IMG/VR virus record: IMGVR_UViG_3300037462_000386
Span: 1-54,445 of that record
DNA length: 54,445 nt
Source of the DNA: a virus
Taxonomy: Duplodnaviria > Caudoviricetes
Direction: 5' to 3' (one strand)
Below the pieces are notes generated by a model. It did no database searches. It saw nothing but the letters and a program-made list of their open reading frames with translations, and was not told the DNA's origin. Shown in pieces: positions 5,006-49,724 of this stretch (its first letter is position 1; each line of letters opens with the position of its first letter). The position numbers and the translations under genes are program-made.

Positions 5006-6567
5006 TACAAACCCTCCGTGCGTCGCAGCAGTTCAACGGGATTGATTTTGCCGCTGGCTTCCGACTGGGCAAGGTCACGCAGCAGACAGTAATGAGGATC
5101 GGATTTTTCCCGGCGTCGTCCCCAGCCATCATGTTTAGCGGTGGCTTTGAACGTGGTGAAAAATTCGGTGACGGAGTAATCCCGATCGTCAAATTCAGCT
5201 CGCCGGCGGCGGAGAAAATGGACAAATTCTTGGGCCAGGACTTCGCCGGAATCCGTGCTAGGGGGAGTCGCTTCAACTGGTAAATTTTCGGGTTGGGGTA
5301 GCGCTGAAAAATCATGTCGAACTTGCAATGCGGCGCGGTAATCCGGGATGCGGACGATATGCGCCCCGGCGGCGAACTCGGTGCCATCGGAGCTGGTGAA
5401 CGCATCGACCAAGTGAACCACTCCGAGCATCTTGGCGCTGGCTTTTGGCCCGTAGCGGATGTCGTAGTCGCGGCGCTTGGCCTCTAGCCTGTCCAGGAAG
5501 TCATTACTAAAGCGGCTGCGGCTGTTGCGGATGGTGTTGTCAGTGCGGATGCTATCCAGAACTGAACCAAGCATGAACAGATTCACGCCTGCGAGGTTGG
5601 TAGTGTCAAGGCCGTCCGTGGCTTTGTCGTTGTGGCAGATTGGGTAGAAAAATATTTTGTACTTAGCCGCTCGAATCAAGTCGCCCAGGAAACCGTTGAC
5701 CCGGCTCAGGCCATCGGGGGACAGGCTACCGAGGAAAGTCTGAAACTCATCAACGAAGTAGTAAACAGGTGCGAACTTTTCTGGGGGTTGTCCTTGAGCC
5801 ACACGATCGGCGTTGATTTGCATCCGTCGGTGGTACAGGTCATTCAACGCGCACATCGCGGCGTAGATGTCTTCATTGGCCGCAAATAGGCGGTGATGGG
5901 CGACGATCGACTCGGCCTTATCCCGGCGTCGATCGTACACAGGTAATCCGGCCCAAGCAGGGGGTGGCCCGTCGTCGTTGCCGGTGCCGTAGTTGGGGTC
6001 GCCAACCAGGACAATATTTTTGCTTTGACTGGATAGCAGATTGTGCAACAAGCCATGGGTGAACGTGGTTTTGCCGGACTGTTTGCGGGCAATGTACAGC
6101 GTGTTCATGGGGTTGCGGACGGAGCCAATCACTAACTCCAGGACGTGCTGTTCAACCACAACTTCACCGCCCGCCGAGGCCGATATCGCCTCCTGTTCTG
6201 CCTCACTGAGCAAGCCCGCCGATCGTTGGATTTCTTTGGCCGATCGTGCCAGTACAGGCCGGACTTTGTGCTCCAGGATTTGCGTGCCACCTGTACCGAG
6301 GTCGGACAGCACCTCGAAAACCGCGGCTCCAGCCAATGCGCTGGCCTGGACCAGAGTTTGTCCCCGTAGTCGGATTGAGGCGGTGGTGCCCGCGACAAAA
6401 ACTCCCCCTAGCACGCCGAGGATGACCAAGCCGTAAAACGCGGCCATATAAACTACCGAGCCAGACAGCAGCAGCAAAAAATACTTGGCAGCGAGGTGGG
6501 TCGAGCTGGCGTAATCCGGCTCCACGATTTCGGCTTCGACAGGAATGGCCTCGGTAGTGACAATCAT
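5005..6567 (-). CDS. membrane-bound FtsK/HerA-superfamily P-loop ATPase (TraB/VirD4-like)
   Basis: N-terminal TM helices; Walker A ARKQSGKTT; LVGDP; ALNDLYHRR helix; Walker B PVYYFVDE; C-terminal domain after a Pro/Thr linker. Confidence 0.75.
   Translation of the reverse strand: MIVTTEAIPVEAEIVEPDYASSTHLAAKYFLLLLSGSVVYMAAFYGLVILGVLGGVFVAGTTASIRLRGQTLVQASALAGAAVFEVLSDLGTGGTQILEHKVRPVLARSAKEIQRSAGLLSEAEQEAISASAGGEVVVEQHVLELVIGSVRNPMNTLYIARKQSGKTTFTHGLLHNLLSSQSKNIVLVGDPNYGTGNDDGPPPAWAGLPVYDRRRDKAESIVAHHRLFAANEDIYAAMCALNDLYHRRMQINADRVAQGQPPEKFAPVYYFVDEFQTFLGSLSPDGLSRVNGFLGDLIRAAKYKIFFYPICHNDKATDGLDTTNLAGVNLFMLGSVLDSIRTDNTIRNSRSRFSNDFLDRLEAKRRDYDIRYGPKASAKMLGVVHLVDAFTSSDGTEFAAGAHIVRIPDYRAALQVRHDFSALPQPENLPVEATPPSTDSGEVLAQEFVHFLRRRRAEFDDRDYSVTEFFTTFKATAKHDGWGRRREKSDPHYCLLRDLAQSEASGKINPVELLRRTEGL
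5254..5295 (-). repeat. dispersed motif, 42-bp long form
   Basis: CAACCCGAAAATTTACCAGTTGAAGCGACTCCCCCTAGCACG on the minus strand; near-identical to 16806-16847 and 39113-39154. Confidence 0.9.
6401..6415 (+). repeat. dispersed 15-bp motif ACTCCCCCTAGCACG
   Basis: exact copy. Confidence 0.85.
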
Positions 6568-47700: not shown

Positions 47701-49724
47701 AGGCCCAGCAGAAAATGACGCTGGAGGAAAAGCAGCGCTTCGCCGAGTTGGCCGAGTTGGAACAGCAGGGAGTGCTCAGCGCGGAAGCAGCGGCGGCGAA
47801 AAAGACTGAACTGACTGAGGCGCGGCTGCGGAAGGAACTCCAGTTAGAACAGGATTTACTGGCGAAATTGCAGACACAACCCGCCAGCCAAGCCCGCGAC
47901 GAACAAATTATCCAGGCTCAACAACGCATTGCCGATAAGCGCATCGCGATCGTGGAAGCGTCGTCAGCGCGTGAAGTCGCCATCCGCAAAGCCGCCCTGG
48001 ACCAAATCGAGCGGGCCAATAAGGTCGCCCTGGACCAAATCGAGCTGGCAGCACAGGAACGTCTGATCCAAACTCAGCGGTTGGTGAACCAGGGGGTCGT
48101 GAGCGAGGCTGAGGCAAACAAAATCAAGACTGAGAGCCAGCGTGAGTCGCTACGAGTCCAATTAGCTGCGGCCCAGCAGTATCAAGCCCAGCTCCAGACG
48201 CTTGAAGCCCAGGCCGCCAACCCCAAGGCGAAAGAAGAGGCCGAGAACGCCACTCGTGAAGCCCGCAAGAAGACCAATGCGTTGACCCTCCAGTTGCTGG
48301 AGGCGGAGCGATCGGCGCAACAGGCGGTTGTGGCAGCGGCGCAAGCGGCCATCCAGAAACAGCTTGATGCGAAGAACCGTGCCTTTGATGCCGAGCTGCG
48401 CCAAATTGCACAGGTTACACAGGCCCGCCGCAGTGCGACCGCCGAAGCCGAAATCGCGGCCCAGCGCGAGAGCGCGGCCCTGGAGGCGACGAACAAGGCT
48501 CTCGATCGGCAGACGAAGTTACTGCAAGCCAAGGCAGCGCTCCAGCAAGCGACCAACGGCTTGGCTCAGACTGAAACCCAGATTGGGATTGACAACCTGA
48601 ACCGAGCGGCGGAACTGCGCAAGCAGCTCGACAGCCAAAACCTGTCGGCCCAAGAACGGATTGTGATTGAGCGGCAATTGGCGGCATTGGGGATTAAGTC
48701 CCAAGCGTCGATCGTGGGCATCGTTGAACAGCGCCAAAAACTGGAAAACAAGCTGGCTGAACAGCGGCGGGCGGCGTTGTTGCAAGAACAGGCCCAGGCT
48801 CAAGCATCGTTAACCTTGGAGGCAAAACGGAATGAGCTGGCGAACAATCGGGCAGTGGTTGAAGCGCGAATTGCTGAAATCAAGGCCAAAGCGGCGGTTT
48901 TGGATGCGCAGTCAGCGCTCAACGAGCAGCGGATTGCCAGTGAAAAGGAAATTGCGGCGGCACAGGCAGCAGTGGCAGCAGCACGGCAGGGTGGTAATCA
49001 GGCCGATATTGTCGCGGCTCAGGCGCAGCTCAAAGCGGCGGAGACCACCGCGCGACTATCCCAGCAGCAAGCCCAGGACGGCGTCGCCCTGGCACGGCAG
49101 CAGGCCGACCTAGCGGCGCAGAATACAGCGGAGGCAATCGAGCAAAAAAATAGCCAAGCCGAACTGGAAGAGTTGTCCCGCAAAACCCTTGCCACCCAGC
49201 AGGAAGCGGCGCTCAAGCAATTTGAGGCGGCGGAGTCGGCACGGGCGCAAGCGCAGCAGCTCGAACTAGCGCGGGCATCAGCAGAAGGGATCGCGGCGGC
49301 GGCGGAACGGACCAAAGCCGCCCAAAGTCAAACTACCTCGGCACAGCCTGTCCCCCGTCGCACGGGTGGCCCGGTTGGCCCAGGAACGGTTTACGAGGTA
49401 TCTGAGGCGGGGCCGGAGATGTATCGCGGGCCGCAGGGCGATTACCTGATCCCCGATCGTGGTCTCTACACCTTCCCCCGATCGGGGCGCATCCTCAACG
49501 CACAGCAGACGGCACAGGCGATGGGGAACGTCACCATCCCAGGTGCGCCACGCATGGCCGGACGTGCTAGGGGTAGTGCCGTGGTTGACGAATTGCGAGC
49601 ACTACGGTCGATCGTGGAAAGCCGATCGGCGGGGGCGCAAATCCCGGTGACGTTTGGTTCACCCGATTCGAAGCAATGGGACGAATTTCTGAAGTTGCAG
49701 CGCAGCCTGCTGAGGGGGTTGTAA
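44724..49724 (+). CDS. tape measure protein
   Basis: 1666 aa, Ala/Gln/Glu helical, central hydrophobic block, C-terminal TGGPV..VSEAGPE; 14/15 motif copy at 49563. Confidence 0.9.
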   Translation: MTENIKLGLLISASGGKQTVAQLLAVQAASKKIADEAPGIARLSEALGITGEAAKRLSKNLQKTPDEILEIAGALQAMRKAGVSADQQLLSLAAKFGLTADQAKKLQAINFSQQQKQVSALGGGVAELAFKFNNVVTALQSLLAAAKPAYDFLIGSNERLNAQLLSSQTNLASATRIFQGGQEVTDPTAKIKATLPALEAALKQVERDTQSLVGVTSQEVNELFQITLTNAAALNNQSKQFADPIAAATSLTKGWAASLKVVGVPLDQARQEINSILKGQIDQNSILAKNLNISNQQVQRWQSQGVLVDELNKRLETFVAGNAIAARSISGIGSNIQDIFERLGRDAGKPFLEPIIAALDAIFRYLQANEQAIIELVTNLGQGLSAALSEFAETVGPALLPIGQNLEAIAKNAGGPLLSAFEGLVSLAAGLIVVLSPIAQILSGIIAQLAVLANSDFGGVVVQALAATAALGKLGSVLAGVIAGVPVLSGAIKALSTTTLPGAIAAMGTFATKIGTSVGGAVTALATGGIPALTAALPGLSAALTTASAAALPLAAALLPIAGAVGVTFIVKGTQDLKNAQREIDALAAGTEALSDRSIRYAARLKALNDAQKANGRLTAEQQAELEKYGRVARLTNQQIDEQIAALRQAKPASEAQSNAIRAQINLLERQKQLLEKTAGGIRIQAKELEDLGTSYEQLAKAAENTDRAIAQAQSTDEANKAAKERISILQQQQELGRITDEQAVEALAKLAENTKLEVEIQQQAQAEIGKIRKNQLKLQLDDLKAQTDQVEAAALTGVKGPVEAAAAITRLKKEQLDLQLKDVQANIAAETAAIAAGRGSATRLKELQAEQKSLQAEIQTEQINSAKRVADAQIKVAEDAYDKTVSIAKGAEIAKNTETAKLVAQGAINVEQAEGRKLAAAQARIAAELQAERIKAEALSRITAQGPEEQKKLEKQRRDTSARIQQLEQEQANNQIAIQKNALDQITADNREAQQKMTLEEKQRFAELAELEQQGVLSAEAAAAKKTELTEARLRKELQLEQDLLAKLQTQPASQARDEQIIQAQQRIADKRIAIVEASSAREVAIRKAALDQIERANKVALDQIELAAQERLIQTQRLVNQGVVSEAEANKIKTESQRESLRVQLAAAQQYQAQLQTLEAQAANPKAKEEAENATREARKKTNALTLQLLEAERSAQQAVVAAAQAAIQKQLDAKNRAFDAELRQIAQVTQARRSATAEAEIAAQRESAALEATNKALDRQTKLLQAKAALQQATNGLAQTETQIGIDNLNRAAELRKQLDSQNLSAQERIVIERQLAALGIKSQASIVGIVEQRQKLENKLAEQRRAALLQEQAQAQASLTLEAKRNELANNRAVVEARIAEIKAKAAVLDAQSALNEQRIASEKEIAAAQAAVAAARQGGNQADIVAAQAQLKAAETTARLSQQQAQDGVALARQQADLAAQNTAEAIEQKNSQAELEELSRKTLATQQEAALKQFEAAESARAQAQQLELARASAEGIAAAAERTKAAQSQTTSAQPVPRRTGGPVGPGTVYEVSEAGPEMYRGPQGDYLIPDRGLYTFPRSGRILNAQQTAQAMGNVTIPGAPRMAGRARGSAVVDELRALRSIVESRSAGAQIPVTFGSPDSKQWDEFLKLQRSLLRGL

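Follow-up and report, generated by a model that had tools for sequence, protein, structure and literature searches.

A dispersed, asymmetric 15-bp motif in a temperate cyanophage genome: a candidate operator array for an orphan ParB/KorB-like protein

What holds one exact, asymmetric 15-bp sequence at ten places around a phage genome, mostly inside genes? The question is raised by IMG/VR record IMGVR_UViG_3300037462_000386, a 54,445-nt stretch of DNA from a virus of the class Caudoviricetes (hereafter the window, i.e., the whole stretch at its full length), in which the 15-mer ACTCCCCCTAGCACG, hereafter the motif, recurs on both strands. Phage arrays of one exact asymmetric sequence are known in few systems; the reader of the sites is established for the stoperators of mycobacteriophages, whereas the same does not hold for the enzyme or the purpose of the nick sites of phages T5, phiKMV and tf. 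The window represents a temperate cyanophage with a lambda-type integrase, an attP site in tRNA-Cys and a Mu-like late module. Our tentative answer, to which we assign a probability of about 0.4, is that the copies form an array of operators or loading sites, dispersed over the genome, for a DNA-binding protein of the phage, the best candidate being its orphan KorB/ParB-like protein.

On both strands of the window, a search allowing up to 2 mismatches yields 10 copies of the motif, 8 of them exact; the near copies, each designated here by its first position (Table 1), are 19923 (2 mismatches) and 49563 (1 mismatch), both on the minus strand. Dinucleotide-preserving shuffles give an expectation of 0.06 copies, and none of 100 shuffles reached 10, the largest count being 1. 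Raising the tolerance to 3 mismatches adds a single site, 25830 on the plus strand, against a chance expectation of 1.25. Nine of the 10 copies match the 12-nt core CCCCCTAGCACG exactly, the invariant core is TCCCCCTAGCACG and the fullest form is CAACTCCCCCTAGCACGGATTT; apart from the motif, no family of 12-mers reaches 5 occurrences in the window. The tetranucleotide CTAG is fourfold under-represented (51 occurrences against 205 expected), and 10 of the 51 sit in motif copies. Examined by eye, the 22-nt fullest form matches at 5 of its 11 symmetric position pairs, 2 of which belong to the central CTAG. Flanks are otherwise unrelated, except for a 42–46-nt element upstream of three copies and an inverted repeat in the ParB-like gene. 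The non-structural region at 5–25.5 kb holds 8 of the 10 copies (post hoc binomial p ~0.007, by hand).

The copies are divided evenly between the strands (5 and 5) and follow each other in the order − + + − + − + − + −, i.e., in 9 runs, for which a hand calculation gives P(≥9 runs) = 10/252 = 0.04. Five copies point in the direction of transcription, 4 point against it and 1 is intergenic; open reading frames (ORFs) contain 8 of the 10. All five sense copies in ORFs read TPPST (the ORF at 14582 is probably not a gene), and the antisense copies read VLGGV (6401 and 25460) or RARG (19923 and 49563). The initial annotation of the window, which was made from the sequence alone, had listed the ten copies at these coordinates and on these strands, described them as mostly alternating, assigned the same reading frames, placed most copies inside genes and considered their number to exceed chance, and our analysis bears it out on all these points. 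Its remark that the ParB-like gene contains two copies holds for the ORF of 590 amino acids (aa) at 23712–25484, but this gene is not the only one, because the 520-aa ATPase ORF at 5005–6567, on the minus strand, also harbors two.

The host of the phage is cyanobacterial, judging from the HIP1 signature: the octamer GCGATCGC occurs 22 times in the window against 1.3 expected, and CGATCG 246 times against 16. We counted the motif in a 4.6-Mb metagenome-assembled genome (MAG) of Cyanobacteriota, G001, where the 13-nt core is found in 4 copies, all on the phage contig C139, and its reversed control in none. At up to 2 mismatches, G001 contains 8 matches, 4 of them outside C139, compared with 16 for the control, so that the matches outside the phage contig are at noise level. 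This density check concerns the MAG that contains the phage relative. The exact 15-mer was also found in 3 viral contigs, each with a single copy and unrelated to the window; in 75 stretches of the species-genome collection, of which 74 are single-copy and unrelated and one, locus L050 (the contig C139), has two copies; and in at least 119 stretches of metagenome contigs, with a single copy in each of the 80 listed. No dense set of copies was found in the species-genome collection, and L050 alone proved related to the window when the retrieved loci were compared with it by blastn. The motif is present in a relative that comes from another sample and was assembled independently, and the host repeat considered in the initial annotation is contradicted by the absence of the core outside the phage contig of G001 and by the uniformly single copies elsewhere.

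Other relatives proved distant. Protein-guided scans of viral contigs with the ParB-like protein, alignment A1, DnaB and the MuF-like protein retrieved only homologs with 26–42% identity, and no close relatives were found in the metagenome contigs, scanned with alignment A1, or in the phage collection. No analogous motif emerged from a k-mer search of the distant relatives and of the 60 kb surrounding the ParB-like homolog in genome G039, the latter showing HIP1 only.

L050, a contig of 7953 bp, is syntenic with the window at 15.9–25.5 kb and contains 4 motif copies at up to 3 mismatches, against 0.19 expected, all in the 18-nt form TCCCCCTAGCACGGATTT and in the strand order − + + −, with 2 sense and 2 antisense. 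Three of the four (L050 4557+, 1019− and 507+) are orthologous to 19923, 24900 and 25460, respectively. The ParB-like proteins of the two phages are ~48% identical, and both copies in their genes have been kept in place. Among the columns with identical residues, the codon is the same in 13 of 15 at the two ParB-gene sites but in 128 of 264 elsewhere (binomial p ~0.003, by hand), the two non-identical codons being at the outer edges. This comparison indicates that selection on the motif acts at the DNA level, as had been proposed from the multiple reading frames.

Six homologs of the 590-aa protein were found. P0002, which is the L050 protein, and P0003 keep (T/I)PPSTD together with the C-terminal KSVLGGV. 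In P0004, TPPGT and SVPGGV take the place of the TPPST and SVLGGV seen in the others; on a minimal count of base changes, as deduced from the protein, the same base pair would have been altered in both copies (TAG to TGG). The 15-mer variant deduced from P0004 occurs in 19 viral stretches, always as a single copy, and no stretch contains several. P0005–P0007 (~40% identity) lack both copies and differ in the helix-turn-helix (HTH) as well. Elsewhere in G001, contig C150, which is the relative's integrase-to-TerL segment, carries a 13/15 near copy, one of the noise-level matches outside C139, which reads MNPPST at the beginning of the Mor gene, and a third contig of the relative, C146, with the endolysin and ATPase genes, has no copy.

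Individual sites turn over. The closest homolog of the 520-aa ATPase, P0009 (65% identical, from the same lineage as contig C146), lacks both window copies; it has GVIGAS at the position of the 6401 copy, and the absence of the 5254 copy marks the latter as young. The 16833 copy is missing from the L050 homolog, and the extra L050 copy sits in the homolog of ORF 20392–21519. Three young copies, 5254, 16833 and 39140, have in common the 42–46-nt element, which extends upstream of the core only, at 88–93% identity (the 46 nt at 5254..5299 are 91% complementary to 16802–16847), and two of these three flank-bearing copies, 5254 and 16833, are absent from relatives. In the TPPST frame, the element reads QP(E/V)NL(P/R)V(E/K)xTPPST; the ParB-like family has QP.NLP.(E/D) at the same place beside the site, even in P0005–P0007, in which the core is missing, and the ParB-gene copy of L050 carries the element at 87% DNA identity. 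Given that the 39140 copy is largely non-coding, the element is a copy of DNA rather than a protein motif. The two ParB-gene copies, which form a perfect inverted repeat of 24 nt in the window and 23 nt in L050, are the oldest and fullest form of the motif. From these alignments, new sites seem to have been made by copying a patch of the ParB-gene site elsewhere, which would account for the invariable TPPST of the sense copies and implies that additional sites are beneficial.

We infer that the motif functions in double-stranded DNA, as a recognition sequence specific to the phage, and that its reader is a sequence-specific DNA-binding protein of the phage. The likeliest candidate would be the orphan ParB/KorB-fold HTH protein of 590 aa; the two copies that are best in form and most conserved are found in the gene that encodes it. 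The ~ten dispersed sites may act like the OB operators of plasmid RK2, i.e., as nucleation or loading points, from which the protein would control or organize the entire 54-kb genome, for instance, through global silencing or activation around the switch between lysogeny and lytic growth. The top Foldseek matches of the model of this protein, over 170–180 N-terminal columns, are KorB (8qa9, E 1.7e-4), Noc and ParB-CDP, all with a probability of 1.00, and its N-terminal 200 residues are ~30% identical (tblastn) to cyanobacterial plasmid genes annotated as ParB, RepB or Spo0J (23 records). The GxxR motif is GHTR, conserved in P0001–P0004; the HTH occupies approximately residues 145–187, and the TPPST copy falls in the disordered linker. 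The HTH segment WSSQAIADEVGLSRPT is common to P0001–P0004, which carry the motif, and differs in P0005–P0007.

Several observations weigh against this interpretation. Overall divergence confounds the correlation of the HTH with the motif, and the label ParB-like, while sound at the level of the fold, is not reproduced by Pfam ParB_N, which gives no match in the window even at E ≤ 10. The model of the 590-aa protein is weak overall (mean predicted local distance difference test score, pLDDT, 55), being usable at ~12–195 and 260–375, with 70–85 in the N-terminal domain. The site is asymmetric, and the sites of ParB, KorB and Noc that we know of are all palindromes bound by dimers. With 8 of 10 copies in ORFs, none is obviously at a promoter, and a promoter scan of 13.0–17.5 kb detected no excess. 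Neither the interleaved orientation nor the perfect pair of 23–24 nt in the ParB gene of both phages is predicted by simple binding. Furthermore, the 25460 copy also encodes the C-terminus of the protein and provides the next gene with a Shine-Dalgarno-like GGGGGAG, which could explain part of its conservation. The bisS sites, considered below, are palindromic too (PMC12409273).

In its logic, the array is closest to KorB with its dispersed OB operators. RK2 has 12 OB sites. As in the window, a ParB-fold HTH protein is combined with about ten identical sites spread over a mobile genome of 54–60 kb, some far from promoters or inside genes. However, OB is a perfect 13-bp palindrome and the motif is asymmetric; a partner resembling IncC/ParA (AAA_31 search) or KorA/TrbA was not found in the window, the N-domain was missed by Pfam, and an integrating phage takes the place of a plasmid. 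KorB loads at OB sites, slides and silences at long range (PMC11790492). A second parallel, drawn from architecture and not from sequence, is BisD of the integrated element ICEclc, which likewise combines a ParB-like N-terminal part, a long linker and an extra C-terminal domain and has one loading site inside a gene; it is a ParB-like CTP clamp that activates distant promoters and acts over ~50 kb of the element, with two palindromic bisS sites and a requirement for BisC, as opposed to ten asymmetric sites here (PMC12409273).

The protein-binding array envisaged in the initial annotation thus stays the best reading in its general, phage-specific form, whereas two of the particular versions that it named, classical parS sites and translocase guide sites, are not supported. 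Partition through parS sites disagrees with the lack of a palindrome, with the integration of the phage through attP in tRNA-Cys, and with the outcome of the ParA search, in which no six-frame translation of the window matched PF13614 at E ≤ 1 (PF01656 was not searched) and the 520-aa P-loop ORF matched no family. One parS-like trait is present, namely, the two copies inside the parB-like gene (24900 and 25460), both conserved in L050. Guide sites for a translocase would be expected to show an orientation skew, and the two orientations are equal in number and interleaved. A partner of the TET/JBP kind, as found with certain phage ParBs, was also considered and rejected, there being no PF12851 match in the window; those ParBs have no DNA-binding domain (PMC13229309).

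Table 1. Coordinates of the motif copies and of other features of the window.
Feature	Position	Strand	Context
Exact copy with 31-nt upstream extension	5254..5299 (copy 5254-5268)	-	Sense in 520-aa transmembrane/P-loop ATPase ORF; reads PQPENLPVEATPPST
Exact copy	6401..6415	+	Antisense in the same 520-aa ATPase ORF; reads GVLGGV within N-terminal hydrophobic segment
Exact copy	14582..14596	+	~200 nt past the stop of (-) ORF 14793-15491; inverted pair with 15087
Exact copy	15087..15101	-	Sense in ORFan 14793-15491(-); reads TPPST
Exact copy with upstream extension	16802..16847 (copy 16833-16847)	+	Sense in 251-aa ORF 16371-17126; reads PQPENLRVETTPPST
Near copy, 13/15, 13-nt core exact	19923..19937	-	Antisense near the 5' end of conserved small gene right after dnaB; RARG
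Exact copy in arm of perfect 24-nt inverted repeat	24896..24919 (copy 24900-24914)	+	Sense in linker of ParB/KorB-like gene; TPPSTDF
Exact copy in other arm of 24-nt inverted repeat	25455..25478 (copy 25460-25474)	-	Antisense; last ParB-like codons KSVLGGVAG*
Exact copy with upstream extension	39113..39154 (copy 39140-39154)	+	Largely non-coding; ends 4 nt before ATG 39159 of Mu G-like morphogenesis gene
Near copy, 14/15	49563..49577	-	Antisense near C-terminus of 1666-aa ORF 44724-49724; RARGS
Orphan ParB/KorB-fold protein, 590 aa	23712..25484	+	N-domain with GxxR, HTH, long disordered linker, helical C-terminal domain
Endolysin	3712-4932	-	
520-aa ORF	5005-6567	-	N-terminal hydrophobic segment and Walker motifs
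HTH_36 initiator	17509-18402		Holds five to six 22-23-bp iterons
DnaB	18399-19790		
Rad52-like annealing protein	21899-22717		
Tyrosine recombinase, 389 aa	25851-27020	-	
Mu-like late module			HU, Mor, gp27, TerL, portal-MuF fusion, Mu G-like gene, protease, major head protein

The alternative that survives best is that the copies act in cis as inverted pairs, with one sense and one antisense copy per transcription unit forming a long-range helix of 15–24 bp in RNA (or single-stranded DNA) that would serve in translational coupling, RNase III-type processing or the bracketing of a gene module. Indeed, matching each sense copy with an antisense copy in co-directional genes places all ten in five pairs (5254/6401, 15087/14582, 16833/19923, 24900/25460 and 39140/49563), the 9 runs of the strand order (p ~0.04) are in line with such pairing, and the complementarity of the ParB-gene pair is perfect in both phages. 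Predicted RNA duplex energies of the pairs range from −30 to −49 kcal/mol, and both short-range pairs, including 14582/15087 in the predicted fold of the minus-strand transcript, form 15 of 15 base pairs in the minimum free energy fold, although perfect complements pair trivially. The GGGGGAG located 8 nt ahead of ATG 25481 falls within the 25460 arm, an arrangement also seen in L050, and L050 keeps parity (2 sense and 2 antisense) despite one partner being in a different gene; equal strand counts (5:5 and 2:2) are, however, not significant. The double change deduced for P0004, A to G in one arm and T to C in the other, is exactly compensatory; pairing and a co-evolving reader accommodate it equally well, and for this reason we keep pairing as the main rival, doubtful as we consider it. 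Pairing alone does not explain why one identical sequence is used across all pairs and in two phages, because independent helices should drift. Furthermore, the pairs 16833/19923 and 39140/49563 span 3.1 and 10.4 kb, the order in L050 (− + + −) shows that alternation is not strict, the near copy at the beginning of the Mor gene in the relative is left without a partner, and no Rfam family matches the window.

A more speculative extension, which we rate a shade lower, is that inverted pairs bracket units of the genome. One such unit would be the C-terminal domain of the ParB-like protein and another the ATPase core; the replication cassette would be a third, and the stretch that runs from the Mu G-like gene to the ORF of tape-measure size a fourth. 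In one version, the brackets would be sequence-identical long-range helices in transcripts, a genome-wide RNA code that couples translation or directs processing; in the other, they would be orientation-dependent boundaries for a sliding ParB/KorB-like clamp, a counterpart, in a virus of bacteria, of convergent boundary elements. Either version would account for the interleaving of the two orientations, for the compensatory change in P0004 and for the parity of L050 with its displaced partner.

In the shape of the site, by contrast, the closest parallel is provided by stoperators, and it can be proposed that a small regulator or immunity repressor, distinct from the ParB-like protein, binds the motif as a monomer and blocks or tunes prophage transcription. 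The stoperators of Cluster A mycobacteriophages (L5, Bxb1) number 20–35 copies, mostly in short intergenic gaps and in one orientation relative to transcription. Like the motif, they are asymmetric, near-identical sites of 13–14 bp that occur in many copies in temperate phages; the window, too, has an integrase and an attP, concentrates 8 of its 10 copies in the non-structural region, and encodes small, conserved candidate DNA-binding proteins, namely, an XRE-like ORF (8426–8692, with a weak HTH_31 match and a homolog on the relative's contig C146) and the 251-aa ORF. The differences lie in the number of copies, in their position in ORFs and in their mixed orientation, which does not track transcription. 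In addition, no copy is located at a recognizable early promoter, and the repressor candidates are putative only. Hence the stoperator analogy of the initial annotation fits the asymmetry and dispersal but neither the orientation nor the location of the copies, and we regard it as unlikely. Monomeric two-domain repressors that read asymmetric stoperators have a precedent (PMC9283540), and stoperator sequences and their readers have evolved together among related phages (PMC9283540, PMC6550527). The nearest cyanophage precedent are the motifs of Nostoc phages A-1 (43 copies) and N-1 (21 copies), which are asymmetric, do not follow the direction of flanking genes and led their authors to raise stoperators as well; those motifs are intergenic, more numerous and of other sequences, and they belong to unrelated lytic phages, with no integrase or partition gene reported (PMC4916379).

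Unlikely as well, and placed lower again, is a motif that serves as the target of a phage site-specific nuclease or nickase, or as a recombination hotspot, at which breaks would start repair or recombination. This would explain the copy-and-paste spread and the mosaic junctions, and the one-sided flank of 42–46 nt looks like a polar gene-conversion tract; however, copying from old sites is predicted by any model that needs new 15-mers. Enzymes that might take part are encoded, a Rad52-like annealing protein and an HNH-like ORF (13400–14122) 460 nt from site 14582, but a conserved motif should come with a conserved enzyme, and no homolog of the HNH ORF was found on the three contigs of the relative that were retrieved, L050 having instead a different ORF that looks, by eye, like GIY-YIG. 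When the window is compared with the relative, the right junction of the replication cassette falls within ~30–130 nt of site 19923, whereas the left junction is ~280 nt from site 16833, which L050 lacks, so that the junctions amount to a weak hint of recombination at the sites. In the contigs of run X1, the one run found to contain the window and possibly its source sample, no ends or joints coincide with the seven sites covered, and nicks would be invisible in contigs. The nick-site motifs that recur in the genomes of T5-, phiKMV- and LUZ24/tf-like phages are short and asymmetric, with 4–14 copies per genome, also inside genes; their positions are similar in related phages, and single-base variants distinguish relatives. 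They nevertheless differ from the motif in lying all on one strand (here, 5 and 5) and in comprising 7–19 nt with degenerate positions (PMC3517423).

The neighboring tyrosine recombinase prompts yet another possibility, namely, that the copies are its sites, used in shufflon-like inversion, as secondary attachment sites or as arm-type sites. In the shufflon of plasmid R64, the sfx sites of the recombinase Rci are asymmetric, with a conserved arm and a spacer, occur in both orientations within coding sequence, and lie beside the tyrosine recombinase gene. The recombinase gene of the window lies ~380 nt from site 25460, and the fullest site can be read as the imperfect arms AACTCC and GGATTT around an asymmetric spacer. 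However, the recombinase has an attP of its own, the tRNA-Cys fragment at 27064–27110, for which reason we rejected it as the main reader, and the motif occurs neither there nor within 1.5 kb. In the run X1 contigs (17–20x depth), no alternative arrangement was seen, the only joint of the "opposite strands" type being a 46-nt repeat that aligns twice; this check covers 7 sites in the assembled contigs of one run, in which rare variants are dropped. Inversion would yield no alternative in-frame C-termini, the TPPST frames being open for 23 (25460), 13 (L050 507), 11 (6401) and 22 (19923) codons; among the copies that are not already sense, long open frames exist only at 14582 (114 codons) and 49563 (99 codons), and 15% of random positions have frames as long, so that an in-frame shufflon was rejected. 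Furthermore, the sites are spread over 54 kb instead of ~2 kb, no genome in the 15-mer scan has two copies ~50 kb apart as attL and attR would be, and a family search of the window found no serine recombinase or invertase. This reading is very unlikely and, indeed, already largely refuted.

Finally, an origin of the motif as a host-derived repeat, by chance or through an assembly artefact is barely credible: the wealth of HIP1 in the window does indicate that host oligonucleotide biases are imprinted on the phage, but the shuffles, the absence of the core from the rest of the 4.6-Mb G001, the independently assembled relative and the run X1 contigs, which span all seven sites examined without breaks, speak against it. 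No known family of sites fully accounts for the array, and we reserve the leftover probability for readings not yet thought of. Among known signals, a sigma-70 promoter (TTTAC(C/G), a spacing of 17–18 nt, CTAGCA/TAGCAC) was rejected because the T at position 6 of the −10 element is missing, by eye, and the promoter scan found none there; the sites of integration host factor, sigma-54 and extracytoplasmic function sigma factors showed no fit when their consensus sequences were compared by eye.

The array adds a cyanophage case to the few phage systems of this kind, with a motif that lies mostly in genes, is conserved at the DNA level across ~50% protein divergence, has probably undergone a concerted change in a relative, and seems to have spread by the in-frame copying of a patch from one gene to others. 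If the ParB-like protein reads this non-palindromic site, the recognition modes of ParB-type CTPases would widen, and global control of the KorB type would extend to a temperate phage. If it does not, the paired layout would point to an undescribed cis-acting mechanism.

As to the genome that carries the array, the first 133 nt of the window overlap with its end (1–133 and 54307–54439; 2 mismatches, both in the last 7 bases), which indicates a circular assembly of ~54.3 kb. The tyrosine recombinase has 1207 relatives in the representative library, its residues R, K, HxxR, H and Y are invariant among 38 aligned sequences, and its model (pLDDT 90.5) is matched best, in structure, by full-length lambda Int, the arm-binding N-domain included. 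Directly upstream of the integrase gene lie 47 nt (27064–27110) that are 85–95% identical in 219 of the 401 cyanobacterial genomes searched, and in all 4 loci checked the match is the 3' half of tRNA-Cys(GCA). Taken together, the lambda-type integrase and this attP identify the phage as temperate and integrating into tRNA-Cys. The integrase family is common in the cyanobacterium represented by G001, given its five further homologs there (33–39% identity) besides the phage copy. Two other pieces of the window, 10593–10631 and 11148–11186, resemble the T-arm and acceptor 3' halves of tRNAs (GGAATCGAACC...) and may be remnants of other attachment sites; ARAGORN found no tRNA in the window.

The iterons, at 17781–17915, are five to six tandem units of 22–23 bp (ATTGACACGGGG(G)AGGGTGTCAG), each forming an inverted repeat with a G-rich spacer in the middle. 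Situated inside the HTH_36 initiator gene, just before dnaB, they likely mark the origin of replication and, given the initiator and DnaB, the phage may have an episomal phase besides integration. A likeness of the motif to the iterons, consisting of a shared GGGGAG and 8 of 12 positions by eye, was not convincing. This module has been swapped between the phages, the genes for gp124, the Rep initiator with its iterons and DnaB (16754–19893 in the window) being replaced in L050 by a single unrelated ORF of 311 aa (4595–5595). The first 80 nt of L050 and both ends of contig C146 (L268) share a sequence of ~100 nt, inverted at the two ends of C146, which looks like the terminal repeat of an insertion sequence or a miniature inverted-repeat transposable element that broke the assembly of the relative.

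Among the remaining genes, the ORF at 14793–15491 retrieved only itself in a homolog search, and the 520-aa ATPase, the 232-aa ORF and the 251-aa ORF had no match in NCBIfam, Pfam and PDB sequence searches. No rve transposase was found in the family search of the window. Besides the ParB-like protein, the DNA-binding proteins that the relative also has are HU (27352–27636), Mor (27789–28136), the XRE-like ORF, the 251-aa ORF and a zinc-ribbon ORF of 375 aa. In the late module, the portal domain (residues 8–445) is fused to a minor-head MuF-like part in the 1117-aa ORF 33606–36959, followed by a second MuF-like gene at 37708–38958. An exact tandem duplication of 34 bp is located just before the Rad52-like gene (21833–21900), and runs of short repeats of the GTTGCGGT type occur in and around ORF 7773–8324 on the minus strand (8063–8363). 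The leftward early region also encodes, in ORF 8771–9325 on the minus strand, a partial GGDEF (diguanylate cyclase) domain (Pfam E 1.2e-11).

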